The translations under genes and the position numbers were made by a program. A DNA stretch of 64,000 nucleotides from a virus. The number at the start of each line of letters is the position of its first letter. Position 1 is the stretch's first letter. Below are positions 1 through 63,584 of the stretch, piece by piece. Location of the stretch: positions 64,001 to 128,000 of the IMG/VR virus record IMGVR_UViG_3300020473_000020; one strand, written 5' to 3'. The notes under the pieces were generated by a model. The model was given only the letters and a program-made list of their open reading frames with translations. It had not been told where the DNA came from and made no database searches.

Positions 1-287
1 TATTGTGACCTTTTTAGTCTTAGCAGTCATCTGGTTTAGACCTTACTGTCGAGCTGTTTAGCATTGTCGAGGATCTTTTTTAAATCGGCCTCAATCTCAG
101 GCTTTAGCTCGTGGTTTTGGAAATCTTTCATAGAAAGCCTTATAAGGTTACGCGTTGCCAAGTATCTCTTGTACAACGGTATAGTCTCAATTGACCTCCA
201 TGTTACTTGATATTTTCTACTAAATAAAGACGAAAGTGCCTGCACGCTAGTAAACTAGGGCAGGCACTTTTAGCTGTTGGGATGCTT

Positions 288-986
288 CTACGCCTTTTTT
301 GTTAGGGCACGGAAAACATAAGGGAACTGGTTCTTATCGTCGGCAGGGTAGGTGCCACGCTCCATCAACTCTACATAATCACTCGGTACGTCAAAGCGCG
401 CCCAGCCTGTTTCTGCTGAGGCTTCGGCAATTGTCGTTTGTACAACCGTATGCCAAATTCGCTGTACGTCTAACTCGACTAAGGCTTGTTTGTAAATCGA
501 GTCACCGCCGATGATAAATAGCTTTTTACTCTCGTCGATGTAGTCAGGTAAACGGCGCTCAAGTTCTGCGAAGCTGGCCACAATGAGTGGCTGATGCGCA
601 CCATTGAGGCGCTTTTCGTCCTCTTCAAGCCATGCTGAAAGATTTATAGGGTCTTTCGTCATAATGACATTCAAGCGGTTAGGTAATAATCGTCCGATGC
701 TATCTAGCGTCTTACGCCCCATGATGACTACGTTATCCGTTGTCAGCGCCTTAAAGTTTTTAAGGTCTGCACTTTGCCTGAATGGTAGATTACCATTTGG
801 CGTACCTATCCACCCGTCAAGCGTAGAGCCTACAATCAGATCAAACTGTAGTCGGTTACCATCGTTGCCTTCTACCGTCGGCGGCAGGTAATCATCGTCG
901 TGGCCTTCTGGAAATTCACCATCGTTTTCTACGTCAACTAATGGCTCTTCTTGTTCAAAGTTTTCTATTTGAGTCTCATCACTCAT
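288..986 (-). CDS. folA: Dihydrofolate reductase with acidic N-terminal extension
   Basis: DHFR motifs IG..NGNLPF...ADLKNFKALT, VVIMGRKTLDSIGRLLPNRLNVIMT, FIIGGDSIY; about 45 aa D/E-rich leader. Confidence 0.93.
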   Translation of the reverse strand: MSDETQIENFEQEEPLVDVENDGEFPEGHDDDYLPPTVEGNDGNRLQFDLIVGSTLDGWIGTPNGNLPFRQSADLKNFKALTTDNVVIMGRKTLDSIGRLLPNRLNVIMTKDPINLSAWLEEDEKRLNGAHQPLIVASFAELERRLPDYIDESKKLFIIGGDSIYKQALVELDVQRIWHTVVQTTIAEASAETGWARFDVPSDYVELMERGTYPADDKNQFPYVFRALTKKA

Positions 987-1006
987 TTGGTACCTCAGCG
1001 TTTCAA

Positions 1007-1366
1007 TTATTGGTTATTAAGTTGCTTTTTAAGGGCTTCGTTATCAAGCTTCGCGTTGTGCAATGCGGCCTTCGTTTCTTCTAACTCTAAAAGCACAGGG
1101 ACTCGGCGCTGTATATCTAGCAGTGCTCGGTCGCAAAGACCCGCGACTTCTTGATTATCCGTTGCTACGCGGATCCGATGAAACTCATCCGCCTGTAAGT
1201 CAAGCTGGTCAAGTAACTGGTCAATGGTGCCCCACGCGGTGGCTAGCTGTGGATTTTCAGCTAGGGCAGCACTATCGGGGCGGTCTATTGTAATACTTGG
1301 TTTTACGTGCATTATCGTCTCCTTGGTTAAAAAGTTTGCAGCGTACCACAGCATGTGCACAGGCAC
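1007..1366 (-). CDS. Hypothetical protein, C-terminal coiled coil (true start possibly at the internal MHVKP)
   Basis: ORF in the minus-strand gene run. Confidence 0.55.
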   Translation of the reverse strand: MPVHMLWYAANFLTKETIMHVKPSITIDRPDSAALAENPQLATAWGTIDQLLDQLDLQADEFHRIRVATDNQEVAGLCDRALLDIQRRVPVLLELEETKAALHNAKLDNEALKKQLNNQ

Positions 1367-1644
1367 CCGTCAGAGCTAACCATGAAGAACTCATTACTAC
1401 ATGCTGCGCATTCCCAGTAGTTATCAGGCGCAGTTAGTAGACTCATTATACCTTTATGCAGGCCACACTCTGGACACGTAAAGGTGGTCTCACCTACCTC
1501 TGAGACACACTGCCAGCTATGGCGGCATGCCAAACAAGTAGCCTTGCCTTCTAGGTACTTGTATTTATCGGCATCCGACGGTTTGTCGTCAACCTCTTTA
1601 TTACGGCGCTTGAACGCGTCGAATTGTACAACTTTATCGTCCAT
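1327..1644 (-). CDS. Small multi-CxxC zinc-ribbon protein
   Basis: CLAC, CPEC, CAAC and CTCC motifs in 105 aa. Confidence 0.7.
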   Translation of the reverse strand: MDDKVVQFDAFKRRNKEVDDKPSDADKYKYLEGKATCLACRHSWQCVSEVGETTFTCPECGLHKGIMSLLTAPDNYWECAACSNEFFMVSSDGCLCTCCGTLQTF

Positions 1645-1746
1645 ATAACGCCCTTTGGGTCACACCCAGTTCAATTACATGGCTTTCGCCAATTTCTCAT
1701 AGTCTCACGGTGCATTATATGCCCAATCGAAGCACTGTCAAACCTA

Positions 1747-2334
1747 CTATGACTCAATTGTAATGCGTATATCGTCAGGGCTTACGCCTAGCGTTAGCGC
1801 TAAACGGCGCTTAGCTTCTGGGATCGTTAGCGGGGTTTCATCTGCCGTAGGCTGAGTAGTTTCTGTGCTGTCCCCAGTCTCACGCTCTTCTTGGTTTAAG
1901 TCCTCATCGTCGACTTTTAGCTCCATAGTTGGGGCAGGCATCGCTTTCCAAGCAAGTGCATCAAGGTCAAAGTGATTGCTTAACTCATCAGTCTGTGTGT
2001 AGCGTACAGGGTTACGGTTCGCTGTAAGGAATGATTTCAGGTCGATCTCTGCGTACTCGCTAAACTGTATAGAATATCGCTGAGCATGGTTTGCGTGGCG
2101 CTTAGGCAGCTTAATGACATCCTTTATTTTGCCAATAACAAACATGTGCTTGTGAGGTGCTGAGACGCCGCCCCAGTCATTACCTTCATTAGCAAAGCTT
2201 CTGTTCTGAATTACGACAGCGTAATCCGCACGCTTTGCACGCCTTGGGTCGAGAACCCATGCTTGGGTACCCCCTTCTTTAATGATGCGTTCGATACCTC
2301 GGGCACTAAATACTGATACAAACTCGTTAGTCAT
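1747..2334 (-). CDS. Hypothetical protein; N-terminal beta-rich domain and small C-terminal domain (LTIPEAKRRLALTLGVSPDDIRITIE)
   Basis: 195-aa ORF preceded by a purine-rich RBS (AGGGG). Confidence 0.7.
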   Translation of the reverse strand: MTNEFVSVFSARGIERIIKEGGTQAWVLDPRRAKRADYAVVIQNRSFANEGNDWGGVSAPHKHMFVIGKIKDVIKLPKRHANHAQRYSIQFSEYAEIDLKSFLTANRNPVRYTQTDELSNHFDLDALAWKAMPAPTMELKVDDEDLNQEERETGDSTETTQPTADETPLTIPEAKRRLALTLGVSPDDIRITIES

Positions 2335-2513
2335 AACTTACCCCTATGCAGGCGATTACGTTTAATTAGCTGCGAGCATAGTAGATACTTTCTCTTGGCT
2401 TTTCAAGCCAAAGTATCGTAAAAGTATTTAAAAAGCCTAGAGCACTAAATTAAGCCTTTGTTTTTAGTGGTGAATTATTTTGAAAAGTATTTTAGAGGTC
2501 TCTGGATTTGCAT

Positions 2514-2562: not shown

Positions 2563-5500
2563 TTAGCGTGGGTCTTTGAGCTTTACCATGGCTGCCGTGC
2601 CATCGTTCTCAACAACCATGCCCTCAAAGTTGATCTTCGACTTCCACTTCTTAGCATTATTGTCATGGAACTGGTACAAGTATTCCACGGTACGCGCGCC
2701 TTGTGTAAGCCAGCACATGTTCAGCCAAGGTAGCTTGCCGCCCTTGACGTTCATGGCCTTCACTAAGCGCGCAGGTACGATACTCTTAGGCGAACCATCA
2801 CCGTCAATGCTCGTACCACCTCGGTATCTATCATCAAAGATGTCAAAGTCAGAGATAACCATTACGCCGCCAATTACGAGCTGAGTCGGGTCACCCTTAT
2901 ACTTTGTCTTATCAAACTTGGCGGTACCTTCAAACAGTTGAACTAGGTACTCATACGCTGGTGAAATAAACGACCCCGAAGATTTCAAATACTTCGGCAT
3001 GGCTTTATCAAGCTCTTTAACCGTATAGATACCTGAACCATACTCCCGACCGTCAAAGTTGATAGGAACTACGTACTTAACACCCATCTTCTTATCAAGC
3101 TCGAACACTGTTGCAGCTATCGCTTTTGAAATAAGTCTTGCTGACGATGCTAAGGAACCCGAGGCATCAATGATAACCACAAGTGCCTTATCACCCGAGC
3201 CACGTCGAACAGGCATGTCGTCGTCCGCGCCCCAAGCGCCCTTAATTCGACGGCTAAGCTTAGAAGCGTTGTGACCTACTTCTGTATCGATCTTAAAGCC
3301 TTTGACCTTACGCGCCCACTTACGAATAAGCGATACCAAGCCCATAGTTTGTCGATCTGCACGTTGGCCGCCTCCAAACTGGTAGGCATCACTGCCTTTA
3401 CCTGCGTTTTGAAGTTGGTCTCGTACGTTGTCTAGGTCAAGCTCACCATCGTTCTTCTCACGCTCGTTACGGTTGTCCTCCATAGTTTCGCCAGCTTCAC
3501 GAAGCATGTCGTTCATCTTATCGAGGTTATCCTTTAAGCGCTGCTGAGCTTCTTTACGCTTAGCACGCTCTTCGTCTGTATCAGGATCGCGGTCAAACAT
3601 ATCAGACGTATCTGGCTGCTCATCGTCGCCATCAGCATCGCTGCCGTCTGCGTCCGAATCTGCATCAGAGTCTGAGTTAGCGTCGGTGTTGTCAGTGTCG
3701 TTACCATCACCCGAGGTCGAGTCACCGCTCATATCGCTATCGTCATCAGCGTCGTCACCCTCTGGTTGACCACCTTGAGTTGTGTCAGGTCTATCGACGG
3801 CGTCATCAGACTCATCATTTGAGCCGATAGTACTGCTATTCATGTCGTTCGCCAGCGAGTCTAAGTAGTCATCCCAGTCAGATTCAGAGTCTTGCTCTTC
3901 TGAGTCGGCATCACCGCCACCGCTTTGCTGGTCGTCGCTGTCTGCGTCGGCATCGTCCCCTGATTGGTCACTTCCACCGCCACTCTGGTTTGAGTCTGCA
4001 TCAGGTGAATCACCATCGCTATCAGCTGCATCGTCTTGGTTGCTTGTTGCATCCGAGTCAGTACCTGACTGGTCTTGGTCGCCATCGGTATTATCACCAG
4101 CCGCATCATTACCATCTTGGTCGTTATCGACATCGTCACCCGTTGTGCTGTCCCCGTCTTGGTCGTCACTAGGGTCTAAATCGTCGTCGGTACCATCACC
4201 CGCTGTGCCGTCACCACTTTGGTCGGCCGAAGCGTCTTGGTCGTCTTCGTCGTCAGGGTCTTCGTCGTTAGCATCACCGCCACCTGCCGCATCATTATCG
4301 TCATCTTCGTCGTCGGTACCATCATCTTGAGAGGCACCACCGCCAGCTGAGCCATCATCTTGAGGTGGCATATCAGGCTCATTGTTGACTTCAATATCTG
4401 GTTGCGGCTCAGGGTCTTCATCTGACCCATTATCTTGCTGCTGATTAGGGTCGACTTGAACCTCATCGCGTACATCAAGATAAACAGGGCGAAGGTCTTT
4501 CGCGCGCTTAACTTCTAGCTCGTCTTCTTTGATCAGGTTATCAGCTGTAGTCGCAAGTAAGACCTCATCGAAGACATTATCATTGAGGCGTACAGGTGCA
4601 TTTGGTGAACCACCGACATTCGCCAATGCGGTTGCTTTAGCGATTTCTTCGTCATTTAAAACGCCACTGTCCTTATTACCTTGAACAGCGCTCATGATCT
4701 TACCCGATAACGTGCCATTCAAGCGTGTTACTGGGTACGTTAGTAACTGCTGAGCACCTTGCTCGTCATTTGGCAGCACACCGATTACGACTTGGTAGAT
4801 GCCAGTTACTTTATCGAGAACCACATCGCCACGTTCCATTTCTGGCGTGTAAATTTCTGGCTCTTTTTGTGTATCTTCTGGGGCTGCTTGGTCACCTGCG
4901 TCACCTGCGTCGTTGTCTTTTTCAACCTCTGTCACAGTCACATCAGGCTTACGTGCATCGCCGTAAGTTGGCTTCTTCTTAACTAGCTCGTCGTCAGTTA
5001 GTGTTGCGCTAAACGCACGACGTACCATTAATTCTAAATCCCAGAAAGAGGGGAGTGGTAGTGTACCGTCTGCGAAGAAGGTATATTCCTCTGGCATGGT
5101 TTCGAGCCTTCCGATATTAACATCATCAGCTCGGTTAACAACAAAGATAACTGGGAACCAAACGTCATAAGACATTTTGTCTTGTGCTGAGCTAAGCTCG
5201 TCAAGTAGTGCCTCGCGGTAGTCAGGCGAATTTCCGCTATCTTTAAGGCGGTTCTGAACGTCGCTTACTTTAGCTGCGTCAAGATTGCCCTTGCCGAATA
5301 CAATTTGGTCACCAATATACCAACGGCCACATGTAATACGGTTAAACGTTGCACCCGTACTAGTATTGCCTCGGGCATCCATTGTACGGAACTCAGGGAC
5401 TGTATAACCGCCATTGGTCGCAGGCATATCGAACATCGCCGACATAAAGCGGTTATTCATTAGCTCTTCAATCGGTACCGTGTTACTCATCACGCGTTGA

Positions 5501-6399
5501 AGTGCTTTACTGTTGGTCTTGTTTACCACAGGTGGTAACTGCATGTCCTTCAAGCCTTGGTTTACATCAGCATTGAAGTGATCATAAATAACGTGCAGAA
5601 GTTCGTGGCCAATCATATAACCGAGTGACGCCATCGCACCACCATAGTTTTCCATACCGCTTAGACCGACTTTTGCAGCAACCATGTCTTGTACAATAGC
5701 TTTTGCAATAAAGGCAGGGTTATAGCGTAGGATCCGCTTAGTCGTCGTGACTTTCTGTACGTAAAGCGTCGAGCCTTTTTCACGAGTTTCTTCTACGGCA
5801 CCAAGCTCTTGATACATCTTTGAGAACGTTGGCATGTTCGACATGCTCGCAACAAAGCGCGCCATCAATTGAATATCTGACGGTTTTAAGCTTAGCTCGG
5901 GAACGTCAGCCATAATGTGCTGGTGGTCGTCCCAAATACGGTTTTTAACCGTTAAGGCGCTTGATTTAGCTGATACAACTTGGCGACCACTCGTGAAAAC
6001 CTCTTCGACAGGCATCGTTGTTGCGTGACCTGCGGCTGAGAAGCTTTTATCTTTTAGTGCATCTTGTAAGAGGGCACTTAAATCATCACGCTGTGCTAGG
6101 GTGTTTTGGATCACACTCTGAGGTGCATCAAGAAGTGGGACGCCGCCCATATTCTTTACCATGCGATCCATGTCTGAGTAGCGCACACCTTGGCGGCTTG
6201 CTAGAGCAACACCATTGTACACTTCTACGTTGTTTGTTTCTGAGTTTACTCGTGCCAAGAAGCCAAAGGTTTGACCTTGGTCTTGGATATTACCTGCGGC
6301 GCGTGTCAACACAGAGGTATAGTCAGAAATATCGGCAGTAACTTTCTGGTTAATGATCTCTTTTACTGCTGATTCAAACTCTAATAATGACAGTCCCAT
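2563..6399 (-). CDS. Metallopeptidase-like (HExxH) + long D/E-rich linker + C-terminal vWA/MIDAS protein (DUF2201-like MoxR partner)
   Basis: GHELLHVIYDH; about 300 aa Asp/Ser/Gly-rich tract; VVIIDASGS MIDAS and MVISDF; in the same gene run as the AAA+ gene. Confidence 0.75.
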   Translation of the reverse strand: MGLSLLEFESAVKEIINQKVTADISDYTSVLTRAAGNIQDQGQTFGFLARVNSETNNVEVYNGVALASRQGVRYSDMDRMVKNMGGVPLLDAPQSVIQNTLAQRDDLSALLQDALKDKSFSAAGHATTMPVEEVFTSGRQVVSAKSSALTVKNRIWDDHQHIMADVPELSLKPSDIQLMARFVASMSNMPTFSKMYQELGAVEETREKGSTLYVQKVTTTKRILRYNPAFIAKAIVQDMVAAKVGLSGMENYGGAMASLGYMIGHELLHVIYDHFNADVNQGLKDMQLPPVVNKTNSKALQRVMSNTVPIEELMNNRFMSAMFDMPATNGGYTVPEFRTMDARGNTSTGATFNRITCGRWYIGDQIVFGKGNLDAAKVSDVQNRLKDSGNSPDYREALLDELSSAQDKMSYDVWFPVIFVVNRADDVNIGRLETMPEEYTFFADGTLPLPSFWDLELMVRRAFSATLTDDELVKKKPTYGDARKPDVTVTEVEKDNDAGDAGDQAAPEDTQKEPEIYTPEMERGDVVLDKVTGIYQVVIGVLPNDEQGAQQLLTYPVTRLNGTLSGKIMSAVQGNKDSGVLNDEEIAKATALANVGGSPNAPVRLNDNVFDEVLLATTADNLIKEDELEVKRAKDLRPVYLDVRDEVQVDPNQQQDNGSDEDPEPQPDIEVNNEPDMPPQDDGSAGGGASQDDGTDDEDDDNDAAGGGDANDEDPDDEDDQDASADQSGDGTAGDGTDDDLDPSDDQDGDSTTGDDVDNDQDGNDAAGDNTDGDQDQSGTDSDATSNQDDAADSDGDSPDADSNQSGGGSDQSGDDADADSDDQQSGGGDADSEEQDSESDWDDYLDSLANDMNSSTIGSNDESDDAVDRPDTTQGGQPEGDDADDDSDMSGDSTSGDGNDTDNTDANSDSDADSDADGSDADGDDEQPDTSDMFDRDPDTDEERAKRKEAQQRLKDNLDKMNDMLREAGETMEDNRNEREKNDGELDLDNVRDQLQNAGKGSDAYQFGGGQRADRQTMGLVSLIRKWARKVKGFKIDTEVGHNASKLSRRIKGAWGADDDMPVRRGSGDKALVVIIDASGSLASSARLISKAIAATVFELDKKMGVKYVVPINFDGREYGSGIYTVKELDKAMPKYLKSSGSFISPAYEYLVQLFEGTAKFDKTKYKGDPTQLVIGGVMVISDFDIFDDRYRGGTSIDGDGSPKSIVPARLVKAMNVKGGKLPWLNMCWLTQGARTVEYLYQFHDNNAKKWKSKINFEGMVVENDGTAAMVKLKDPR

Positions 6400-6467
6400 A
6401 TAGGCTGTCCTCCATTTCTCTCAAGTCTCGATTTAGGGGAGTCCTAAGTGACTCCCCCTCGTGCAGT

Positions 6468-7523
6468 TTAACTCTTACGAATAAGCTGCGGCATGTCTTT
6501 CAAGATAGCGTTAGCACGTTTGATTAACGCGTCACCGTCAAGCGTTTCTTTACGACTAGCTTGTTCGTCTAGATGCTCGGCCAGTTTGTTAACCATCGTT
6601 TCAACCATCTTCGTCATGTCAACGTACTCGATAGTCTCAGAAGCCGTATCACCTGATACACGTGGCGTCATGTTGATGTTTGAGTTAGCTAACGTTTGAC
6701 GGCCTTTAATCGCTTTCGCGACAACCTTATCATAACGAGCGTTCTTACGAGATACTTCGTTACGTGGTAGGCTCGTGACGCCCATGATAGCGCCTAAGCT
6801 CTTTTGTAACCACTTATACAAGTTCAGTGCCTCGTCGTAGCTAAAAAAGTTACCCGTCGTTACGTGGTCGCGTACCATGCTTAGCGCCATAGACGTTGAC
6901 ATGGCTGAGTATAAACCAAGCAGTAAGTGAGCAATGCCTTTGGCGTAATCTTCGTGAATCGAGCTTACAGGTGTGTCTAAATTGATGTTATCAATATTAG
7001 CCATGTTGTAGCGTACAAGCGTAGCCGAATCTAGCGTAGCCATGAGCGCCGCAACGATTGAGCTATCTAGCGATTCAGCGGTGTCCATCAAGACGTCATA
7101 ACGTAGCTTGAAATTGGCTGGATTAAAGCCTGTACCTAGCACATGACCTGATAAGTCACCAACGAGGTTATCCATATTCGTGTTAGACGTTACGGTGGCG
7201 TTATAGATACCACCCGCAGCGGCTGCGTTATTAGCACCTACACCACCTGCGCTCTGACTATCCATAGACACCTTGCCTGACCCATCCGTTTTAAGCATGG
7301 AAGGCGTGATACGGTAAACAAGGTCGTTAGGCGAAAAGCCTAACAACTCTGCTGCACGATTTAAGTGGTAGCGTGTTAACGAATAACAGCCAGTGCGCTC
7401 ACGCGCACCCACTAAGTCTGACTTTTTCATGCCAAAGATATTGGCAAGGTCTGTTCTTGTTAGTAGCGGATCTTCACCTTTTTCAATCAGTGACGCCGCT
7501 ACACTAAAACCATTAATTAACAT
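6468..7523 (-). CDS. Hypothetical protein in the AAA/vWA operon
   Basis: 351-aa ORF tightly packed between the AAA and vWA genes. Confidence 0.75.
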   Translation of the reverse strand: MLINGFSVAASLIEKGEDPLLTRTDLANIFGMKKSDLVGARERTGCYSLTRYHLNRAAELLGFSPNDLVYRITPSMLKTDGSGKVSMDSQSAGGVGANNAAAAGGIYNATVTSNTNMDNLVGDLSGHVLGTGFNPANFKLRYDVLMDTAESLDSSIVAALMATLDSATLVRYNMANIDNINLDTPVSSIHEDYAKGIAHLLLGLYSAMSTSMALSMVRDHVTTGNFFSYDEALNLYKWLQKSLGAIMGVTSLPRNEVSRKNARYDKVVAKAIKGRQTLANSNINMTPRVSGDTASETIEYVDMTKMVETMVNKLAEHLDEQASRKETLDGDALIKRANAILKDMPQLIRKS

Positions 7524-7536
7524 TGTCTAGTACCCC

Positions 7537-10500
7537 TTATTTCCAGACATCACGAAGCAAGCGTGAATAGCGAGAAAACGCTTGAATCATGTCTTTATTC
7601 ACGAGCTGTTGCTGGCGTTCAGACACTGACAGGCTCACATCACTGTCAATCACAACTGATGGATCAATGTTCATTGACGTAAGCGTATCTCGAAGATTTT
7701 GAGATACTTTCGCTGACACCTTGTCTTCATCGGCTAGTACGCCCATCGAGCGCGTATTAGCAATACCAGCCATAACGATTTGTGTATCAGTGAAATCGTG
7801 TGAGTCGTCCGACGCAAGCGCTGACGGAGAACGTAACAAGTCTAAAGCTTGCAGCTGATCGACTTCTTTTGTACCGCCCTGTTTAACGAACGTTGCTTCG
7901 TAATTGATTTGTGCGAAGGTTGCACTGTGTACAAGGTCATCTTCTGAAAGGTTCGCTAGTGCACCTAAGTTACCTGCTCCCTCATCACCCATAAAGGCTG
8001 TTGGGCGAGCAGGGGTACCGTCCATCGTGACTTGAGCAACAGCTAGTGCGATACGGCGTAGCTGATCACCCTCAAGTCCAATAACGGAAGGTGTTTCAAC
8101 AATAGGTATCTCAAGCAGCTGCTGATGAGGTGCCGCGATAACATCTTCTACGCGTAACGTAATAGCAACACCATATCGGTTGCCCTTGTACACAAGGTCT
8201 AGGAACCAGTCTGGATTCTCTTTTGCTGCTTCTGTATTACGTGATGCGTTATCAATGCGAGAAAGTGGCAATACATCTTTTAGGTGAAGTGCATAAGCTT
8301 TAGATGACTTACCGATAATGGTTGTGCCCGCGTAGTTGCCTTTACCTTGATCAAAACGATGTAGCGTGTTGTAGTCAGGGTAGATATGGCCATCGTGTGC
8401 GTTGACACTGCCTAAAGACATAAGCTCGAAGCGTTTATTATCTTCAAAGAAGCGGCCAACGGCGTCGATTGTTGAGCGGCCACGCGCTTCCATCATAACA
8501 CCAAGGAGTGCTGCGGCCTGTAGTGGGCTGATACCCTTATCGGCTAGGTAGTTCGTTGCGTCTTTAACCGTTTTGAAATCGCCATTCCATGAGAAGGACT
8601 TAGCGTTTTCATTAGTGACAGCTTTCTTGTAGACGTCGGTACCCGATGAAATAGCAGGTAGCACTACCGTTTCGATTGCATCTGCATTATCTAGGCGTTC
8701 GCCAATTGAACTTGCGAAAGACTTAAAGATAAGGCTTGTTGCCGTAATGACCTTTGGCACTTCGAGCATATCTACAACTAGCTTGTTTAGTGTCTCTACT
8801 GCTTTTTCTGCACCTGACACTTTGTTACGGTAGTCGTTTAAGAACATTGAGATACGAGCGTCCGTGATAGGGCGCGCTGCCGCTAATGGATGGCCGTTGT
8901 ATACGTTCTTCAATCGTAATAAATGAGCTGCCGATGGTTTGAGGTCTGGATTTTGCGCCAGTGTGTCCTCAAGAAGACGGATGAATAGCTCATTAAAGTC
9001 GAGTGTCGTCTCTGAGGCTACCATTGCCATGTGGCGGTTAATTAGACCTTCAAGCTCTTCATCACTGGCCGACTCGTTGAAAAGTTCAAGTGGCTCAAAG
9101 CCTGCTACCTGTGCGGCCGCTACCGATTTCTCAACATAGAATTGTTCTAGTGCTTCGCCAACAACGTCTTTGGCGTAGTCAGGTACGATACCTGCGTATG
9201 TAAGCTGAACGCTCGCATCGTCTAGCGTGTTCTCAATTTCTTCGATCACGGCTTGGCAGCGGAACATAAAGCTGTTCAGGTTTCCGAACTGGTCTTTAAG
9301 GCGGCTAATCGTCTCCATATCACCGTTCGTGATGCTGATACATACATCACGGATAGCATTGAAGATGTCTTTTGCGGCCACTGTTGAGGTGTTCGGTAGT
9401 TCAAGTGCCGTGTGTAAACCTGTCGACTTTAACTCACGTAAAGGGTAGCCCATGTTCGGGTCTTCTTTAAACAAGATAAGGTCAGGGTTTTCACTTACTG
9501 CAATGAATGCCTGTGCCTGTGCTAATACAGGGTCTGCACCACCTGCGGCAACGGCCGCTTCGCTTAATGCAATGTTTGCATAAACGTAAGGGTGGTTTGT
9601 TACCATCATATTGTGCAACGCTTGAAGAGTACGCATTGTGAATACTGGGCTGGCTAGGCCGCCTTCGTTTTCATCGTCGTAGTCATCACCGCCCATTTCG
9701 TCATAAGGCGTGTTAAGCAGCTCCATTAGGGTCTCAGCACCCATCTTTTCAGCAACGTAATGCGCAGCTGGCAGTTCGGTCTCTAAGTACTCAATGAATT
9801 GCTCAGTATCACGCAATGAGACTTCACGTGTAATTTTAGTCGCGAAACGGTGTAGCGTTGCCGTATCAATTGGTGCAGCATCAAACGTTGAACCCATAGA
9901 GCCTGACTCTGCGTCAAAACCTTCTGAGTCATCGTAGTTACCTGCTGCAATTACTGAGTAATTGATGCCAGATAAGTCACAACCAAAGAGACGAGAATCT
10001 GAGATCGCTTCAAACACGGCTGACTGTACTACTGGTGTACAACGGTTGATCTCATCGAAAACAAGTACAAGACGTTTGCCTTCTTCTTGTGATTCGCGGA
10101 TCGCGTCAAGCTGGTCTTGAAGCTGTTTGTTCGGGATGTAGCTCGTTGTCTGATGTGGTACATCGCCATTTTGTTTCACTTCGGCTTCAAATGCTTCAAA
10201 CAGTGGTGATGTAACCGCCGCCATTTTTGCGTTCAGCGCATCTTCTTTCGAGGCAGCGCCTTTCTCTTTAAAGCCAAAGCCAAATGCTTCGCGTAGGAAT
10301 GGAGCAGGGCGTGGGAAACCACCCACGTTTACACGGTCAGTACTTGAAAGGTCAATGCGGATGGCTTCGTCATCGTTTTTCTTAATGGCCTGATTGATAC
10401 CAGCTGTTTTAGCGATACCCATACGGCCTAAAAGCATTAACGGTAGACCCGCACGATAAGTGTGGTCAATGAAGCTTTCTGAATCCGTCGTCGTGATGTC

Positions 10501-12558: not shown

Positions 12559-12968
12559 AGCATTACTCCACAAGTAAATAAATTTACGTCTCTTGTACCT
12601 GCAAACAGGCACGGTTGTCTCAATCTCAATTCACTACCGTGATTGCAGGTAAAGCCCTAGAAAGTCACAGGTAAGTGAACTTATTGTACAACGCTACGGG
12701 GCAAAGAGAAAGCCAAAAGGGGTGGTGCGTGAGGTGGTGGGGTGCCAGATAAACGACAACCCGCACACATACGTGTAGCGGGTTGTTAATATATAATAAG
12801 ACTTTTAGTGTTAAAGCTAACCTTGTGCCCTTTAAGCCATTGTGACCTAAAGGTTTTGCTTATCTCGGTTTGCAGGAGCATAGTAGCAAAAACAGATCCC
12901 TGCTTCCACCCTTAATTCACTTATTTTCCTATGTTTTTGTACAATGCTTTCGAGGTCTTGTACACGAC

Positions 12969-18469: not shown

Positions 18470-18590
18470 TTATCGGTGTAATCGTCTGCGGCGCAGCGAT
18501 TTATTAAACATGGTTGTACAATACATTATTTTTTGCGGAAGTAAAACCTTTTTTATAAAAAGTTTGTACAACGCTTTACGAGGCAGTGCT

Positions 18591-22602: not shown

Positions 22603-22631
22603 AAGATAGCAGCTAACCCGCTGCGCCGCAA
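22603..22631 (-). promoter_or_regulatory. Sigma70-like promoter driving the leftward helicase-clamp-polymerase arm
   Basis: TTGCGG-17 bp-TATCTT on the minus strand. Confidence 0.55.
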
Positions 22632-25060: not shown

Positions 25061-25102
25061 GTTGTTGTACAACGATTATTAATAAATGAGACTGAGATAC
25101 TA

Positions 25103-36095: not shown

Positions 36096-36135
36096 GTATT
36101 GTACAAGGGTCGCCATAGGGCGGCCTTTTCCGTTT

Positions 36136-45720: not shown

Positions 45721-45766
45721 AGTGTTGTACAATGTTTAGGTCGAGACACTGAGATATTGAGGCCAT

Positions 45767-46201
45767 TTGATTATGCTAGATAAAACACCACGTTGCCCAC
45801 ATTGCCAAAACTTAACAGTTATAGGTACCGTGGCAGGAAAAGCCGTAGCCGTATGTACTTATTGTGATAATGGGTTTGCTGTCGCTCATAGTGACTACGC
45901 GTCATTGTTGCAGTTACCAGCACAGCAAATAACGCGTACGCAGTTGGATAAGGCAATAGCCCAAGGGCTTGAGCATATACAATCGGCTACGCAGAAGAAG
46001 CAGGATGAGGTTATAGCTGCCGAAGCTGCGTTAAATGAGACAATTGAAGACCGCACAGATGAGGAAAATCAGACGGCGGCTAATCTGCATTCTCAGCGTA
46101 TGATGTACGCAGGTGTTATACAGGGTGCAGCTTCTTACCGAAACGTCTTAGCGACGCTTGTAGGACTCCCTAATACCACTCTTGCGGCACAACCTGAGTA
46201 G
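45767..46201 (+). CDS. Hypothetical zinc-ribbon protein
   Basis: CPHC...CTYC; GAGG RBS. Confidence 0.6.
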   Translation: MIMLDKTPRCPHCQNLTVIGTVAGKAVAVCTYCDNGFAVAHSDYASLLQLPAQQITRTQLDKAIAQGLEHIQSATQKKQDEVIAAEAALNETIEDRTDEENQTAANLHSQRMMYAGVIQGAASYRNVLATLVGLPNTTLAAQPE

Positions 46202-50770: not shown

Positions 50771-50882
50771 ACGTTGTACAATAAAAGTTTGTAAAGGGTT
50801 GCGTTGCAGCCCTTTTGCGTTTATAGTCTCGATTGTAATTGTACAAAGCTTTATGAGCTTTATTAAAAACCGAGATAATCTT

Positions 50883-53779: not shown

Positions 53780-53972
53780 TAGAAGTTCCTCAATCGTCTC
53801 ATTTTACTAGTAAGTTGAAGTATATACTCAAAACAATTGTACAACGCTGTACATAAGAAAGCCACGGCGCTTTGGTTGTACAATGGTGCGAGGGTTGAGT
53901 AGGCAGCTGCACAGGCGGTCTTACGTGCCAGCATTAAGCAAGCTATGGATGTTAAATAATTAGCAAAAACGG

Positions 53973-54005
53973 TTGCGGCGCAGTGCTTTATAGAGTATTG
54001 TACAA
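53973..54005 (+). promoter_or_regulatory. Sigma70-like promoter whose -10 overlaps a TTGTACAA palindrome
   Basis: TTGCGG-17 bp-TATTGT(ACAA). Confidence 0.6.
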
Positions 54006-58344: not shown

Positions 58345-58727
58345 TGTACTAGCCCCACCAGTTACCATACGCACACATACCCAATAAAGCTGAACGGGTA
58401 ACTCCCCCATCCGTTCAGCGTTACTAAAGTTGCTATAACAGCAGAACCCCCTAACTCTTCTGATGGTCACCTGAGCCATACCTAGTATAAGCACCCTGCT
58501 TGTCATGCTGGTTCTTAATCTGTTGTACAACCGTGTTATTTCAGCCCCTGATAAAGCACTAAATGCAAACCTGCGCTATACGTTAATCATCCCTCAATCG
58601 CCTTGTGCTTTCGGAAAAAAGAATTTGAGAGCGCTAAAATCCATTATTAAATTGTAGCAATGACCTTTAATTTATGGGTCTACATGCCACTTTGCAGTTT
58701 TTGTTTTGGTATTTTTGGATCACATTG

Positions 58728-58754: not shown

Positions 58755-58906
58755 TTTAATGATCCTATATGTATCTATTATCGGTGGCGCGAGATTTTCG
58801 ATGACCGAGCATCTTAATGGTGCAGAGTTCGGTTATTGTTGTACAACGATCATTAATGTGGTGACTGCTTGCTAAGAACTTTTTCGTGCTTTGTGGCTCA
58901 AAACCC

Positions 58907-58939
58907 TTGCAGTGCAGGTATTTATGGCATATTGTACAA
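58907..58939 (+). promoter_or_regulatory. Sigma70-like promoter whose -10 overlaps TTGTACAA
   Basis: TTGCAG-17 bp-TATTGT(ACAA). Confidence 0.6.
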
Positions 58940-58967: not shown

Positions 58968-61145
58968 ATGGCCGAACTTGAACTAAACAGTGGCATGTTA
59001 GACGGTGAAATGGGTAACGCCATTAAGAAGCTAATCACATCAGCAATGGTTGACGATTACGATGGGTGTATCAAAGAACAAAACTCAGCTATCGCAATTC
59101 GTGGCCACATGATCAGTGACTTCACTAATGATGATGCCCCAATGGGATTCCCTACCTTTGATGACGTAGGGAACTTGAACTTATTGCAGTACCTAGATAA
59201 ACACAAGATCATCAGCTTTGACGACCAAGTTGCTTTAGCGCTTGAGGTTCTGACTGATAAGGGCGGTAGGTTAAACTCGGCAGCACGTAAGCGTATTGCT
59301 AAGGAATGGTCGGGTAAATATGATGGTCACTCCCGCGAGCTTGAATTGGTATTAACGCAAGTACTACTTCACCCTAATGCGCGACTAGCTATTGTGGGCG
59401 GGATCCAAGATCAGAAGAACTGGCGAAGAGACCCTGTCGTAAAAATGCTTAGAGCTGGGCATAGTTGGTTAGGTTTAGATAGCAATATCGAGACTGTTAA
59501 GGGCTTCATAGAAAGCTATAAAACGGATGAACGCTACTGGCCGCTTGAGCTTTGGGAGATTGCGGCCGTTGATGAATACGGTAGATCTGACAGCTTCGCA
59601 GCAAGTATAACTAATGCTTGTGAGGGGTATCTAAATACTTTGCTTGTAAAGGCTCGCATTTTTAGCGACCTTACTGCAACACAGAAAAAAGGTCTGATCC
59701 TCGCACTTTACGCGATTAGTTCACTTCTATCGACACGAACTGTTATTGCCCCGTTCGACGCTGCAATCCCTAAGCTAGATAGCTACATTAATTTTGGCCG
59801 CTTGCGTCACCATGGGTTATGCGACGCACAAGGAAAGGCTTCACCGATTTATGAAATTGCGAAAGGCGTAGCCTTGAACTTGGGGGAGTCCGTCGGCAGT
59901 AGTAAGGGTGAAATAATTTATGCAGGTATCAAGTCGATCATTGAAACTGTTGGTTATGATATAAGCAAACTTGACGATTTGAAGGGGTCGATGCGTGCCT
60001 ATTACGCTAGATTACTCACGGATCGCGTGGTTAAACTTGTGATGGAGATCGAGGACATCATAGAGATTCTAGAGTCTCCCGACTGCCATTATGTCTTTTC
60101 CGACGAAGGGAAAACGTTCTTAAATGACCTCAGAGAAGACTTATTTACGTGGCTTAAATACTTACGGTCTGATGACATTAAAGAAGGTAATGACATCAGC
60201 AAGCTAAGCGTCGATGAGGCTGCGACTTACGATTACTGGGTCGGAAAATTCCGAGGTATTCTTGCGGATAACCCGTATACAGAAACGTTTGCCGACCATC
60301 TTGCTTCTAGGAACCTCAACATTGAGAAGCTACAGCGTCAGGCACAAGAGGCCATAGTTGAAATGGACACTGAAACTCTTATGTCAGTAACTAAGCAACT
60401 AAACGAAGCTAAGACGGCCGCGCAGAGTATATTAATAGAGTTGTACAATCCTTTACGGCTTACTGAGGCAATGAAAGACGGCGCGCCAAAGAAAGAAGCC
60501 AGTCCCAAAAAAGGCAATGATGGCCATGACCAGCTACTGGATGACTTAGAGCATACGATAGACACTCTTGAGGGTAAGCTTGCTGATGAGACAGAGAGCC
60601 GTAGTGCTTTAGGGAAAGAATTGGCCGAGGCAAAGCGTAATATAAAAGCGATGGAAAAGGCGTTGGCCGATGCCAGCGAAGATAGCAGCGATGCTTTCGT
60701 AGCACTACTTCGAGGCAGTACACCGCATGCGGTTGTCTCGTCATTCAAGGCACTCGCGGGTAATCACGTAGTCGTTTTAGATTCAGCTTTGGAATCTGCT
60801 AGTAAAAGTACGTTCAAAAACACAGCAAAGCTAATGGAAGCGCTGTCTATACTTTCTGATGACTATTACAACCAGATCGTAGTCGAAGGTAAGCCCGATT
60901 CTGTTGCGAAGAATGTACTCGGTTTTGCTTACCGTGCGGGTGAGTCCGACACGACTATCGCAGTTCCTAAGCTACGTGCACAGCGTGAGTTCAAGTATGA
61001 AGGCGAAAATTACCTGTTCGTTCAGCACCTGACGCTAGGTACAAAGCGTGGTAACCAAACGTCGATTCAAGTCCATTTCAAGATCATTGACAAGAAGCTT
61101 GTAATTGCGCGTGTTGGAACCCACTTAGAAGTATCGAGCAGCTAG
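58968..61145 (+). CDS. Large hypothetical protein; coiled coil plus possible RelE/ParE-like C-terminal domain
   Basis: AGGAG RBS; C-terminus HLTLG...IQVHFKIIDKKLVIARVGTHL. Confidence 0.7.
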   Translation: MAELELNSGMLDGEMGNAIKKLITSAMVDDYDGCIKEQNSAIAIRGHMISDFTNDDAPMGFPTFDDVGNLNLLQYLDKHKIISFDDQVALALEVLTDKGGRLNSAARKRIAKEWSGKYDGHSRELELVLTQVLLHPNARLAIVGGIQDQKNWRRDPVVKMLRAGHSWLGLDSNIETVKGFIESYKTDERYWPLELWEIAAVDEYGRSDSFAASITNACEGYLNTLLVKARIFSDLTATQKKGLILALYAISSLLSTRTVIAPFDAAIPKLDSYINFGRLRHHGLCDAQGKASPIYEIAKGVALNLGESVGSSKGEIIYAGIKSIIETVGYDISKLDDLKGSMRAYYARLLTDRVVKLVMEIEDIIEILESPDCHYVFSDEGKTFLNDLREDLFTWLKYLRSDDIKEGNDISKLSVDEAATYDYWVGKFRGILADNPYTETFADHLASRNLNIEKLQRQAQEAIVEMDTETLMSVTKQLNEAKTAAQSILIELYNPLRLTEAMKDGAPKKEASPKKGNDGHDQLLDDLEHTIDTLEGKLADETESRSALGKELAEAKRNIKAMEKALADASEDSSDAFVALLRGSTPHAVVSSFKALAGNHVVVLDSALESASKSTFKNTAKLMEALSILSDDYYNQIVVEGKPDSVAKNVLGFAYRAGESDTTIAVPKLRAQREFKYEGENYLFVQHLTLGTKRGNQTSIQVHFKIIDKKLVIARVGTHLEVSSS

Positions 61146-62135: not shown

Positions 62136-62140
62136 GATGT

Positions 62141-62374
62141 ATGAGAAATATCGAGCTTATGCCTGATTCGAAGTCGGGCACTCGTGTTGTATTCACACAC
62201 CCCACGTTCGCTTTTATTGACCAGCACTTACAAAACGGACGTGAGTACCTAAAGCGTGATGGTGTGTATACAGTACACACGATAGACGGTGATGATGCCA
62301 CCGCAGCTGTAGAGCTAAAAGAGTTCATCGGAGTCAAATTCGCGCTTACGCAATTTGATGAATTAGAGACTTAA
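62141..62374 (+). CDS. Hypothetical protein
   Basis: AGGA RBS. Confidence 0.6.
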   Translation: MRNIELMPDSKSGTRVVFTHPTFAFIDQHLQNGREYLKRDGVYTVHTIDGDDATAAVELKEFIGVKFALTQFDELET

Positions 62375-62387
62375 TCGAGACTGAGAT

Positions 62388-63242
62388 ATGAAACCAATAC
62401 TGTGTATCTACCATGATCACTGTACCGATGGGTATGGCGCTGCATGGGTTGTACAACGCAAGTTCGGTGTTGAGAATGTGGAGCTTTACGGTGGAACGTA
62501 CATGCGCCCAGCACCGCCTGTAGAGTTATACAAAGACCGCACTGTCTACCTTGTAGACTTCTCGTATAAACGCGATGTTCTGAAAAAGATTGCCGAGCAA
62601 GCCAAAGAAGTAATTATATTAGACCACCATGCAACGGCCGAAGCTGATATTGCACCATTGATTGCTGATGGAACCGTAACAGGCTGTTTCGCTAAAGAAG
62701 AGTCAGGTGCCCTGCTAACTTGGAATTATCTATTTGCGGGCTTCCCAGCGCCTCGGCTTATTCAGCACCTGTCGGATCGTGACTTGTGGACTTTCAAACT
62801 CCCGAACACAAAGGTAATTGTAGAAGCCGTAATGTCATACGATTATGACTACGACACTTGGACAGACCTAATGCACGAACCGTTATCTAACCTTATAGAG
62901 ATCGGCGAACGGTTATACGCAATGAAGCTTAAAAATGCGAAGGACATCATTGATTCTAATACGCTTCTTGTTGAGTTCGAAGGCTCATTGGTGCCGTGTG
63001 TAAACATGCCTTACCAGTGGGTTTCAGACGGTGCCGAGTTTCTAAAGGATGACTACGATTTCGTCGTATTGTTTACGGTCGAGCGAGAGCATGTGAAGTT
63101 CTCATTAAGGTCAGCCAAAGGTAAAACTGATGTTAGTGAGATAGCATTGAAGTACGGCGGCGGTGGCCATAGAGAGGCCGCTAGCTTTAGCCTAGCTAAA
63201 GACGACTACTTAGTTCGTCGTCTAGTGCTGGGCAGCTATTAG
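62388..63242 (+). CDS. DHH/DHHA1 phosphoesterase (nanoRNase-like)
   Basis: YHDHCTDG, LVDFS, ILDHH, DRDLW, FSLRS, YGGGGHREAASF. Confidence 0.9.
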   Translation: MKPILCIYHDHCTDGYGAAWVVQRKFGVENVELYGGTYMRPAPPVELYKDRTVYLVDFSYKRDVLKKIAEQAKEVIILDHHATAEADIAPLIADGTVTGCFAKEESGALLTWNYLFAGFPAPRLIQHLSDRDLWTFKLPNTKVIVEAVMSYDYDYDTWTDLMHEPLSNLIEIGERLYAMKLKNAKDIIDSNTLLVEFEGSLVPCVNMPYQWVSDGAEFLKDDYDFVVLFTVEREHVKFSLRSAKGKTDVSEIALKYGGGGHREAASFSLAKDDYLVRRLVLGSY

Positions 63243-63243
63243 G

Positions 63244-63537
63244 CTAGTCTTTAACGAGCTTAGCGATTAGGTCAGACTCGACAATGATTATGGCCTCTTC
63301 GCCATCTATGGTCTCTTTATGAGGTCTGTATGGCTCGTGAAAGACTACAGTATCGCCTTCCTGCACGCACACAGGGCGAACGTTACCATTATCAAGTAAC
63401 TTGCCAGCGCCGACGGCAAGAACAACACCACGGTTTGATACAGTCTGCATAGCTTGCGGTAGGATTAGATTTGATTTCTGAGGGTCGACAGTTAGTCGCT
63501 TTATTAAAATTTGGTCGTGTAACGGTATGACTTTCAT
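63244..63537 (-). CDS. groES: Co-chaperonin GroES
   Basis: MKVIPLHDQILIK, GVVLAVGAGKLLDNG.VRP..VQEGDTVVF, ESDLIAK. Confidence 0.92.
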   Translation of the reverse strand: MKVIPLHDQILIKRLTVDPQKSNLILPQAMQTVSNRGVVLAVGAGKLLDNGNVRPVCVQEGDTVVFHEPYRPHKETIDGEEAIIIVESDLIAKLVKD

Positions 63538-63584
63538 GCGCGTTGTCTCAATTAGGTATTTAACGCGCATTGTACAATGGTTTT

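Follow-up and report, generated by a model that had tools for sequence, protein, structure and literature searches.

An exact 8-bp palindrome dispersed across large Pseudoalteromonas phage-plasmids as a possible operator of an element-encoded global regulator

Why does one short palindrome, TTGTACAA, recur throughout a viral genome, and what might read it? The window analysed here, a stretch of 64,000 nucleotides corresponding to bases 64001-128000 of a 138,059-base virus record (IMGVR_UViG_3300020473_000020), contains 42 exact copies, all at the start positions listed in an earlier note and with none missed. The over-representation claimed there was borne out, as 100 dinucleotide-preserving shuffles of the window gave a mean of only 1.35 copies (SD 1.29, maximum 6) and none of them reached 42. 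The whole 138-kb record holds 93 copies, at 3-9 per 10 kb, and TTGTACAA is by far its commonest 8-mer. Such an excess could stem from nucleotide composition, codon usage, or a recurring peptide, and 20 of 35 intragenic copies do share one reading frame (xTT-GTA-CAA). The shuffles already refute this explanation, to which we give almost no credence: the observed count was never reached in dinucleotide or synonymous-codon shuffles, 58 of the 93 sites lie outside ORFs, adjacent sites upstream of the protease gene fall in differing frames, and the excess holds from 43% to 61% G+C. Under a codon-preserving null model, a control proposed beforehand, in which synonymous codons were shuffled within each ORF, the enrichment survives, with 36 intra-ORF copies in the 138-kb record vs. 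6.22 ± 2.30 (maximum 15 in 300 shuffles), and 21 vs. 5.3 ± 2.1 and 29 vs. 8.2 ± 2.6 in the other two large genomes.

These two genomes are a closed 128-kb Pseudoalteromonas plasmid and a 202-kb contig of Pseudoalteromonas umbrosa B95, and in both TTGTACAA is again the top 8-mer. The 138-kb, 128-kb, and 202-kb genomes carry 93, 62, and 102 exact copies, respectively (2.7, 3.2, and 4.5 expected), which is 20-34 times expectation, and the word ranks first at 46.5%, 44.6%, and 42.9% G+C. Pooled one-mismatch variants, in contrast, stay close to expectation, at 1.13, 1.13, and 1.42 times. A 7.2-kb relative with 61% G+C has 4 copies vs. 0.04 expected, and no enrichment was found in host chromosomes and more distant relatives. 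Of the 230 copies in the whole P. umbrosa genome (147 for a control word), 102 are on the 202-kb contig, which by arithmetic makes the word about 25-30 times as dense on the element as on the host chromosome; the excess is thus specific to the element. The sites are also retained in place: at ~72% DNA identity, the 202-kb relative has 17 of 26 alignable sites unchanged, compared with 8.6% of all 8-mers; identity per base is 0.89 inside the sites and 0.74 beside them; and a cluster of sites ahead of the prohead protease gene is retained in two genomes. The intra-ORF excess under codon shuffles together with this conservation shows that TTGTACAA is selected as DNA.

The arrangement of the sites points to a two-fold symmetric reader acting genome-wide, as suggested earlier; binding itself is inferred. 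Not only is the core palindromic, but the flank preferences mirror each other, and flank positions do not differ with gene direction except marginally at +18 (T at +8 occurs at 16/42 sites in gene direction and 15/42 in the opposite direction). Close pairs and triplets are spaced by 17-59 bp, with a mode of 22. The earlier statement that about half of the sites are intergenic also holds, as two crude ORF calls place 22 or 23 of the 42 window sites between genes, while ~17% of the DNA is non-coding. When the three large genomes are pooled, 123 sites fall in tandem gaps (48.8 kb in total), 37 in divergent gaps (17.9 kb), and 6 in convergent gaps (11.8 kb), with a binomial p of 3.4e-6, i.e. 2.1-2.5 per kb in promoter-capable gaps vs. 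0.5 per kb in convergent gaps, although these classes are approximate because the ORF calls are crude (83% coding). Of the 123 tandem-gap sites, 29 precede a start codon by 21-45 bp, and the major capsid and prohead protease genes are among those with such a site.

A link to transcription start regions, proposed in the earlier note, is supported by this gap preference and by the overlap with sigma-70-like promoters. In the window's genome, 10 of 11 TTGCNNYGCAG-type promoter matches have a site within reach (chance 0.055), at offsets of -26, -25, -13, -12, +20, +25 (four times), +33, and +40 from the -35 element; such a variety of registers is expected of an operator laid over promoters. The overlap is strong only in this genome, which sits less easily with an operator, as 2/6 and 1/7 matches of this class have a site in the two relatives. 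Two of the putative promoters, 53973-54001 (+; TTGCGG, 17 bp, TATTGT) and 58907-58935 (+; TTGCAG, 17 bp, TATTGT), are overlapped in their -10 boxes by sites 53998-54005 and 58932-58939, the former box consisting of TA plus the first half of TTGTACAA. The TATTGT boxes described earlier at 53996 and 58930 therefore stand, each 17 bp behind a -35-like hexamer, whereas the minus-strand box at 18523, although it too reads TATTGT, has a poor -35, TTTTAC, 17 bp upstream. At 50799-50827 (+; TTGCGT, 17 bp, TATAGT; a consensus match only), one site lies 17 bp upstream of the -35 (50774-50781) and another 11 bp downstream of the -10 (50839-50846). In three cases, two from the window's genome and one from the 202-kb relative, 4-5 bp separate the end of a site from the -35 downstream of it. 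Site 22637-22644 is 5 bp upstream of the -35 of the putative promoter 22603-22631 (-; TTGCGG, 17 bp, TATCTT; likewise a consensus match), and site, -35, and -10 are conserved as a whole in the 202-kb relative.

The remaining non-coding sites of the window are found in several settings. A divergent gap carries 53837-53844 and 53876-53883, which together with the promoter-overlapping site make three in 170 bp, and another holds 31160-31167 and 31386-31393. The conserved pair 18514-18521 and 18564-18571, 50 bp apart, begins 59 bp upstream of the minus-strand ORF 17243-18454, while 26065-26072 is 69 bp upstream of a DnaB-like ORF (present in the 202-kb relative, shifted by an alignment gap), 63570-63577 is 32 bp upstream of a GroES-like ORF (-), and 28272-28279 lies in a 0.9-kb non-coding stretch ahead of a RepA-like ORF. 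Site 25065-25072, absent in the 202-kb relative, is 4 bp past a helicase stop codon and 30 bp before the next start. Further intergenic sites are 12684-12691, 12937-12944 (kept in the 202-kb relative), 58523-58530, 58839-58846, and 38994-39001, which is directly followed by a terminator-like hairpin; 169-176, not alignable to the 202-kb relative, is between ORFs or in a small doubtful one. The conserved site 36099-36106 lies 3 bp past a UvsX-like stop, directly before a terminator-like hairpin that is kept in the 202-kb relative through changed letters, a position between stop codon and hairpin that speaks against an operator.

About a third of the sites are inside ORFs, and many of these are conserved and hundreds of bases from any gene end, which an operator would not lead one to expect. 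In the window, those conserved in the 202-kb relative are in the ORFs for a sliding clamp (16410-16417), a DnaB-like protein (27201-27208), a clamp loader (32040-32047 and 32563-32570, the latter 34 bp from the ORF end), an SbcC-like protein (40564-40571), an exonuclease (-; 44960-44967), and the RNR large subunit (46939-46946). Sites 32393-32400 (clamp loader) and 38387-38394 (SbcD-like) are not conserved, and 15620-15627, in the DNA polymerase ORF, reads TTGCACGA in the relative. Others lie in a DHFR-like ORF (438-445; ORF 288-986, -), an Acb1-like ORF (39858-39865), a 725-aa ORF (60441-60448, where RNA-library contigs pass through), a DHH phosphoesterase ORF (62449-62456), the ORF 37063-37446 (+; 37301-37308), and low-scoring ORFs (1624-1631 in 1327-1644, -; 29762-29769 in 29530-29826, +; 45420-45427). 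The near-absence reported earlier for the 2.5-12 kb operon did not hold up: its three large ORFs (2563-11583) carry a single site, 5689-5696, in ~9 kb vs. 2.8 expected. The expectation follows from ~0.31 intragenic sites per kb (36 per ~115 kb), and the shortage is not significant.

We consider it an even bet that TTGTACAA is the operator of a symmetric, element-encoded global transcription regulator of this large Pseudoalteromonas phage-plasmid family; protein binding, its encoding by the element, and repression by binding are inferred. A two-fold symmetric protein, most likely an element-encoded homodimer, would bind the 8-bp palindrome in its exact form, slightly favouring a Y-R step on either side. 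Sites over the -10 to +1 zone would block RNA polymerase, those just upstream of a -35 might repress or help, and those in short gaps or inside genes could provide extra silencing, road-blocks, or loading points. With ~100 sites on the element and background numbers on the host chromosome, one protein would be able to keep the entire lytic programme of a plasmid-borne prophage in check, or to time it. The likeness to the dispersed operators of a plasmid prophage, drawn in the earlier note, has gained weight because the relatives are plasmid-borne Pseudoalteromonas phages carrying ParA and in some cases also RepA. Transcription-factor sites are usually degenerate, while one-mismatch variants of TTGTACAA are at background, and such exactness is more usual for enzymes or phage-specific promoters.

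This exactness resembles that of phage promoter boxes, and TTGTACAA might itself form the core of a promoter specific to the phage. It would then be a box in the -10 region, spanning roughly -15 to -8, which host RNA polymerase recognises together with a sigma-like or adaptor factor encoded by the element. In T4 late transcription, TATAAATA serves as such a box. In favour of this unlikely but not negligible reading, TTGTACAA has TA at its centre and yields TACAAT where T follows (43/62 sites in the 128-kb type), 29/123 tandem-gap sites precede start codons at the distance given above, and most sites lack a -35-like TTG at promoter spacing. RNA-library contigs from two runs of one sample end 8 bases beyond 53837 on the side of the minus-strand genes and begin at 58940, directly after site 58932, and a contig from one run ends 8 bases beyond 44960 on the downstream-gene side, although these are only coincidences because contigs cannot show an RNA start. 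Against it, the flanks are mirror-symmetric without gene-direction bias, T follows only 28/93 sites in the window's genome, complete sigma-70-like promoters have the site in four or more registers, and conserved sites occur deep in ORFs and, in one case, before a terminator-like hairpin. Moreover, neither the 138-kb record nor the set of 126 ORFs specific to the 202-kb relative gave a match to a sigma, gp55-like, or RNA polymerase gene.

Exact recognition is also typical of enzymes, and TTGTACAA might be a DNA-level self mark unrelated to transcription, such as a methylation or nicking site, a Chi-like protection against nucleases, or a packaging or condensation signal. The high density relative to the host chromosome and the conserved intra-ORF sites are consistent with this, but we regard it as improbable, since sites are 4-5 times rarer in convergent gaps, which are equally free of coding constraint, and, in the window's genome, are closely linked to promoter-like elements. 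The self-marking methyltransferase suggested earlier is not supported either: the only one found, a Dam-family enzyme encoded outside the window (genome 10918-11511), has no counterpart in the 202-kb relative, and the annotation of the 128-kb plasmid lists no methyltransferase.

Alternatively, the reader could be the partner of the element's ParA, a centromere-binding protein with a second role in silencing genes from dispersed palindromes. The model for this would be KorB of plasmid RK2, a clamp of the ParB family that is loaded at palindromes and can silence promoters as far as 1.5 kb away (PMC11790492). The ParA gene is followed in each of the three large genomes by a 634-665-aa ORF and a YlcI/YnfO-like ORF, and the partner protein has an invariant G-E-x-R-x-R segment (consensus GEKRLRS), which we take to resemble the ParB arginine patch. 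The densest site cluster of the window's genome (6 sites in 1.1 kb, genome 136460-137473) is just downstream of the ParA operon, and the three sites ending shortly upstream of a -35 would also agree with such a protein. We nevertheless think this identification improbable. ParB as reader failed: ParB_N (PF02195), with E-values up to 10 admitted, matched nothing in the 138-kb record, the 128-kb relative, or the 202-kb contig, while it recovers the host's own ParB, and no ParB came up when solved structures were searched with a profile of the partner protein. Only two homologues of the partner appeared in a large protein search, and TTGTACAA is spread evenly rather than centred on the par operon.

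Among other possible readers, RepA, named in the earlier note, was set aside, as it has no homologue on the equally enriched 128-kb plasmid. YefM failed its test as the reader of TTGTACAA, but the E. coli YefM operator, whose long repeat is TCATTGTACAATGA and spans the -10, is a precedent for a dimer that can read this word (PMC1802561). No family match among the conserved proteins points to a sequence-specific repressor, leaving three candidates only. The HU/IHF-family protein (39221-39541, +; Pfam Bac_DNA_binding) is common to all three large carriers, with IHF alpha as its best NCBIfam model (75.8 bits, below the model cut-off) and no homologue found in Rhizobium phage TM30. A conserved 89-aa protein (36151-36420, +) and a conserved 142-aa protein with a CPxC...CTxC zinc ribbon (45773-46201, +) have no family found and low-confidence structure models (pLDDT 59.9 and 66.7, respectively). 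The 142-aa ORF has a site 40 bp upstream (45725-45732), and TTGTACAA also precedes its homologues in both large relatives.

The earlier note on this DNA had listed 42 copies of the exact 8-bp palindrome TTGTACAA in the window, and both the count and all 42 positions were matched exactly, compared to a mean of 1.35 and a maximum of 6 copies in dinucleotide-preserving shuffles of the window. Across the complete 138,059-base virus record (IMGVR_UViG_3300020473_000020), the word occurs 93 times in an even spread of 3-9 copies per 10 kb and is the top 8-mer, with no other 8-mer near it. Based on crude ORF calls (172 ORFs, 83% coding), 58 of the 93 sites in the record are located outside and 35 inside ORFs (window, 22-23 outside vs. 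19-20 inside), and the sites outside ORFs number 57-73 per genome in the three genomes compared here (93, 62, and 102 copies), at an overall density of about one site per 1.5-2 kb. The excess is no by-product of coding, as the enrichment withstood the codon-aware null model on which the earlier note had made it depend: shuffling synonymous codons within ORFs gave 6.2 ± 2.3 intragenic copies in the window's genome vs. 36 observed, and 5.3 ± 2.1 vs. 21 and 8.2 ± 2.6 vs. 29 in the two relatives.

The enrichment is very specific to the exact word. Exact TTGTACAA is found 20-34 times over expectation in the three genomes, while its twelve one-mismatch variants, when pooled, reach 1.13, 1.13, and 1.42 times expectation. 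The flanks show a weak symmetric bias, with a Y-R step on either side and A/T-rich bases farther out; the window's genome has CG or CA as this step, with the flank variant CATTGTACAA occurring 27 times, and the 128-kb relative has TA.

The sites are also conserved in place. The alignable DNA of the window's genome and the 202-kb relative shows about 72% identity and includes 26 sites. Of these, 17 are kept exactly and one more is shifted by an alignment gap, compared to only 8.6% of 8-mers overall. Identity per base is 0.89 within TTGTACAA vs. 0.74 in the 30 bases on either side, and for the 16 intragenic sites it is 0.91 in the word vs. about 0.76 in the flanks. Conserved intragenic sites are found in the genes for the ligase, the clamp, a DnaB-like protein, the clamp loader, an SbcC-like protein, an exonuclease, and RNR.

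The distribution among intergenic gaps depends on the direction of the neighboring genes. Pooled over the three genomes, tandem gaps contain 123 sites in 48.8 kb (2.52 per kb) and divergent gaps 37 sites in 17.9 kb (2.07 per kb), but convergent gaps only 6 sites in 11.8 kb (0.51 per kb; binomial p = 3.4e-6), with gap classes that are approximate because of the crude ORF calls. The density in convergent gaps is similar to that inside ORFs. Tandem-gap sites lie on average in the upstream part of the gap; 29 of the 123 precede the next start codon by 21-45 bp, and 13 start 0-5 bp after the previous stop codon. Proximity to a terminator-like hairpin (within 12 bp) was seen for only 5 of 257 sites, roughly as many as chance would give. 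This placement bears on the possibility that TTGTACAA is a mark by which the element's own DNA is recognized. Like Chi, uptake sequences, and HIP1, it is a short exact word that is far above chance and above the host background, occurs in genic and intergenic DNA, and is kept by selection at the DNA level. Yet unlike a pure self mark it concentrates in gaps that can hold promoters and avoids convergent ones, and this dependence on promoter context makes such a function, taken alone, improbable.

Some sites coincide with promoter-like sequences. Searching for an A-tract followed by TTGCNNYGCAG and by TAnnnT 17 bp behind TTGCNN yielded 11 sigma-70-like matches in the window's genome, at W22603-22631(-), W40117-40145(+), W50799-50827(+), W53973-54001(+), and W58907-58935(+) (W, window position) and at six places outside the window. 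Ten of the 11 have a site in reach, vs. 0.055 by chance. In four of them the -10 element is TATTGT, including those at W53996 and W58930, where the earlier note had seen the palindrome overlap such a box, and in one it is TACAAT. The site lies just downstream of a separate -10 in two cases and 4-18 bp upstream of the -35 in four; these groups overlap, as one promoter with a site on each side is counted twice. One promoter is conserved whole, together with its upstream site, in the 202-kb relative. The same pattern is less informative in the two relatives, where 2 of 6 and 1 of 7 matches have a site. All members of this strong-looking promoter class share the upstream A-tract and a near-palindromic TTGCNNYGCAG (CTGCGSCGCAG-like) over and behind the -35, and this extension may represent a second regulatory word. 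Neither ARAGORN nor Rfam called the tRNA-like stretch that directly follows the promoter at genome position 39676. Furthermore, many start codons are preceded at a distance of about 9-13 bases by the word GAGAC or TTGAGAC, often doubled (e.g. at W25090-25100 and W63540-63560), and GAGAC or GAGAT is present within 30 bases upstream of 39 of the 172 ORFs; the GAGAC-type word seems to work alongside the usual GGAG-type ribosome site.

The overlap with -10 elements raises the question of whether TTGTACAA itself is the core of a phage-specific promoter. A sigma-70 -10 element (TAnnnT) tolerates mismatches, whereas the one-mismatch variants of TTGTACAA are at background and the next base is T in only 28 of the 93 copies of the window's genome (C in 40); TATAAT itself is depleted to 0.33 of expectation. 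A box of the T4 late promoter type would be a single exact word near -10 without a -35, oriented with the late genes and served by a gp55-like factor. TTGTACAA is exact and mostly lacks a -35, yet the sites show no orientation bias, and the Pfam and PHROGs scans revealed neither a gp55-like factor nor a sigma factor. When the 123 tandem-gap sites were oriented by gene direction, their flanks mirrored each other, with only position +18 being marginally more A/T-rich on the downstream side. Mirrored flanks are more readily explained by a two-fold symmetric reader, i.e. a protein recognizing TTGTACAA on double-stranded DNA, than by a directional promoter box, and we consider a promoter core rather unlikely. 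The best-supported explanation, to which we give an even chance of being right, is that TTGTACAA is the operator word for a symmetric, element-encoded global transcription regulator.

RNA data were available as contigs from two metatranscriptome runs of one sample, and such contigs cannot show where an RNA starts. They are identical to the window wherever aligned. In both runs contig ends were located directly after W58932 and 8 bases past W53837, and in one run also 8 bases past W44960, the latter two on the side facing the downstream genes. W60441 and W45725 are crossed by contigs. We regard the contig ends beside these three sites as a coincidence and not as evidence of RNA starts; the holes in contig cover around W46939 and elsewhere prove nothing.

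The carriers of the word form a family of very large Pseudoalteromonas phage-plasmids. The 138-kb record encodes head genes (major capsid, protease, and terminase), a large set of replication and recombination genes, and many host-like genes (SecB, GroES, thioredoxin, an Acb1-like protein, and a PspA cluster). It also encodes a RepA-like initiator (W28487-29521) and ParA with a partner (genome positions 132605-135739, outside the window), so that plasmid-type replication and partition genes share a phage genome with a full replisome. When species-representative genomes were scanned with a capsid alignment, two cultured Pseudoalteromonas proved to carry a relative: P. umbrosa B95 on a contig of 202,601 bases, with a capsid identity of 89%, and P. 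peptidolytica DSM 14001 on a contig of 128,281 bases, with 72%. In the plasmid collection, Pseudoalteromonas sp. SCSIO 43201 was found to contain a closed circular plasmid of 128,275 bases with the same capsid identity as the DSM 14001 contig and with tail, baseplate, and ParA genes. Together, these capsid-bearing contigs and the closed circular plasmid indicate that the elements are plasmid-borne phages. Close relatives among named phages were not found by megablast and blastn, and DNA polymerase matches reach at most 37% identity. The window's phage is present in marine and seawater metagenomes of 11 studies, and also in RNA libraries.

The first 100 bases of the 202-kb contig are repeated about 1.08 kb ahead of its end, and this contig is thus probably complete. 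The ParA partner of the 138-kb record is also encoded, in identical form, on a 419,624-base contig, so the record may represent a fragment. Completeness estimates of 33% and 30% for two virus records are doubtful given that the 128-kb relative is a closed circular plasmid. At the end of the 138-kb record, the final 30 bases recur 45 bases earlier, forming a short direct repeat in the last 75 bases, outside the window.

Enrichment of TTGTACAA is a trait of this family. The word is the top 8-mer of the 202-kb contig (102 copies) and of the 127.6-kb virus record G002 (62 copies vs. 6 of the control word), the 128-kb plasmid also has 62 copies, and a 7.2-kb metagenome contig with 61% G+C and a 76% identical recombinase has 4 vs. 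0.04 expected. In the host chromosomes the word is at background level, with 230 copies in the P. umbrosa genome, 102 of them on the phage contig, vs. 147 of the control word, and with 160 vs. 116 in P. peptidolytica. Where TTGTACAA is clustered in the two host chromosomes, the clusters are intragenic and seem to be due to chance. Among more distant relatives no enrichment was found, with 10 sites vs. 4 of the control word in a 118.8-kb relative by DNA polymerase, 10 vs. 3 in the 207 kb of Rhizobium phage TM30 (capsid identity 58%), and 0-1 site each in nine virus contigs. No substitute palindrome dominates in TM30 or in five of these nine contigs. A paired-site scan of the virus collection returned, among the matches listed, mostly single and unrelated ones.

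No protein could be identified as the reader among the candidates on the elements. Conserved candidates are an IHF-like protein, the ParA partner with its YlcI/YnfO-like neighbor, an 89-aa protein, and a 142-aa zinc-ribbon protein with a site upstream of its gene in all three genomes. The AlphaFold models of the 89-aa and 142-aa proteins are too uncertain for a fold search (pLDDT 59.9 and 66.7, respectively), and the protein atlas gave no lead for either. Subtracting the genes shared with TM30 leaves 69 candidates, too many to help, and the Pfam and PHROGs family scans named no repressor of the L5 gp71 type. The earlier note had also considered a self-marking methyltransferase. This fared poorly, as a Dam-family gene is present only in the window's genome, with no homolog in the 202-kb relative and none annotated in the incomplete gene table of the 128-kb plasmid. 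An involvement in partitioning, with the ParA partner as the reader or the sites acting as a centromere, would agree with the presence of ParA and a conserved partner gene on these elements. The partner has a local GEKRLRS segment. However, the ParB_N model (PF02195) gave no match on any of the three element sequences at E values up to 10, and a profile of the partner searched against solved structures retrieved no ParB. We consider this role unlikely.

Among known systems, those nearest to the proposed operator word are the operators and stoperators that cluster A mycobacteriophages use (PMC9283540) and the KorB operators of plasmid RK2 (PMC11790492); TTGTACAA differs from both in being an exact 8-bp palindrome, in its number of about 60-100 copies, and in having conserved copies inside genes. 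In cluster A phages such as L5 and Bxb1, a single repressor silences the whole genome by reading a short word that recurs more than twenty times across it, at promoters and in small intergenic gaps (PMC9283540). The number of dispersed copies (93, 62, and 102), their similar density, and their location in gaps and promoters resemble this arrangement. In contrast, the cluster A sites are asymmetric 13-mers, bound by a monomer and active in one orientation relative to transcription (PMC9283540), whereas TTGTACAA is an exact 8-bp palindrome with symmetric flanks and without orientation bias, a third of its copies are inside genes, and its reader is putative. In RK2 (IncP), the dimeric partition protein KorB is also a global repressor that acts at and away from promoters via dispersed palindromes (PMC11790492). 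The elements share with this system dispersed palindromic sites and ParA with a conserved partner gene. They differ in having about 60-100 copies of an 8-mer instead of a 13-bp palindrome (OB), and in a partner that fails the ParB_N model. RK2 has about 12 copies of OB. The prophage of P1, the comparison chosen in the earlier note, is a plasmid kept silent via many C1 operators scattered over the genome, and these elements are similarly plasmid-borne phages with scattered sites; the C1 operators are asymmetric 17-mers in far fewer copies.

A further resemblance is to the Escherichia coli YefM operator, in which the long repeat TCATTGTACAATGA is bound by a dimer and covers the -10 element; TCATTGTACAATGA contains TTGTACAA, a palindrome with a TGTACA core (PMC1802561). 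The YefM sites are one pair 12 bp apart, measured center to center, before its own operon, whereas here the closest spacing is 17 bp with a mode of 22. YefM was rejected as the reader, as PhdYeFM (PF02604) is absent from the 138-kb record and the 128-kb relative and occurs only in the 202-kb relative, where the gene is part of a YefM-ParE cassette whose upstream DNA lacks TGTACA. This toxin-antitoxin cassette, with an XRE-type gene, is inserted between baseplate genes (L203:6011-7470, positions 166011-167470) and is missing from the corresponding position of the 128-kb relative. Literature searches combining the word with phage, promoter, or motif, or covering Pseudoalteromonas phage-plasmids and over-represented palindromes in phages, returned no description of an excess of TTGTACAA.

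Large phage-plasmids are common in marine bacteria, and we know of no answer to how they keep some 200 genes silent or ordered. Tentatively, and with less than even confidence, we propose that this family of Pseudoalteromonas phage-plasmids, 128 to at least 202 kb in size, may possess a new kind of genome-wide switch. An exact 8-bp palindrome, present about 60-100 times, would be recognized by a protein outside the known DNA-binding families, which would silence or time nearly all transcription units and also use the conserved intragenic sites. This would be a symmetric, independently arisen counterpart of the mycobacteriophage stoperators, doubling as a mark that tells the element from its host. 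The single word provides a handle on phage-plasmid control, as it predicts the locations of promoters and operators, can be used as bait for the regulator, and is a simple signature for family members in metagenomes, even at 61% G+C. Cultured carriers for such studies are P. umbrosa B95, P. peptidolytica DSM 14001, and Pseudoalteromonas sp. SCSIO 43201. Few genome-wide silencing systems are known from mobile elements, and a reader that turned out to have a new fold, or to be the ParA partner, would add to them.

Several other features of these elements deserve mention. Host-interaction and chaperone genes in the window encode an Acb1-like anti-CBASS protein (W39550-40014), SecB (W43284-43754), GroES (W63244-63537), and thioredoxin (W29861-30178). 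Beyond the window, the record contains a PspA/DUF350/DUF2491/DUF2170 cluster, a glutathionylspermidine synthase, NAMPT with PRPP synthetase, an SDF-family transporter, an ion channel, and a cluster of seven tRNAs (Lys, three Asn, His, Pro, and Gln) at genome positions 14368-14958 (L001). The relatives carry ProQ/FinO-like and Hfq-like RNA chaperones (202-kb relative, L196:9315-10214 and L200:10859-11086; plasmid NZ_CP072685.1, 12424-13245 and 43450-43704), which hints at small-RNA control on these elements. Finally, CCGG is absent from the window and from all 138 kb, where about 404 copies are expected, and GATC is at 0.54 of expectation in this lineage, while CCGG occurs 207 times in the 202-kb relative and 136 times in the 128-kb type. 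It appears that the window's lineage, and it alone, completely avoids a CCGG-specific restriction system.
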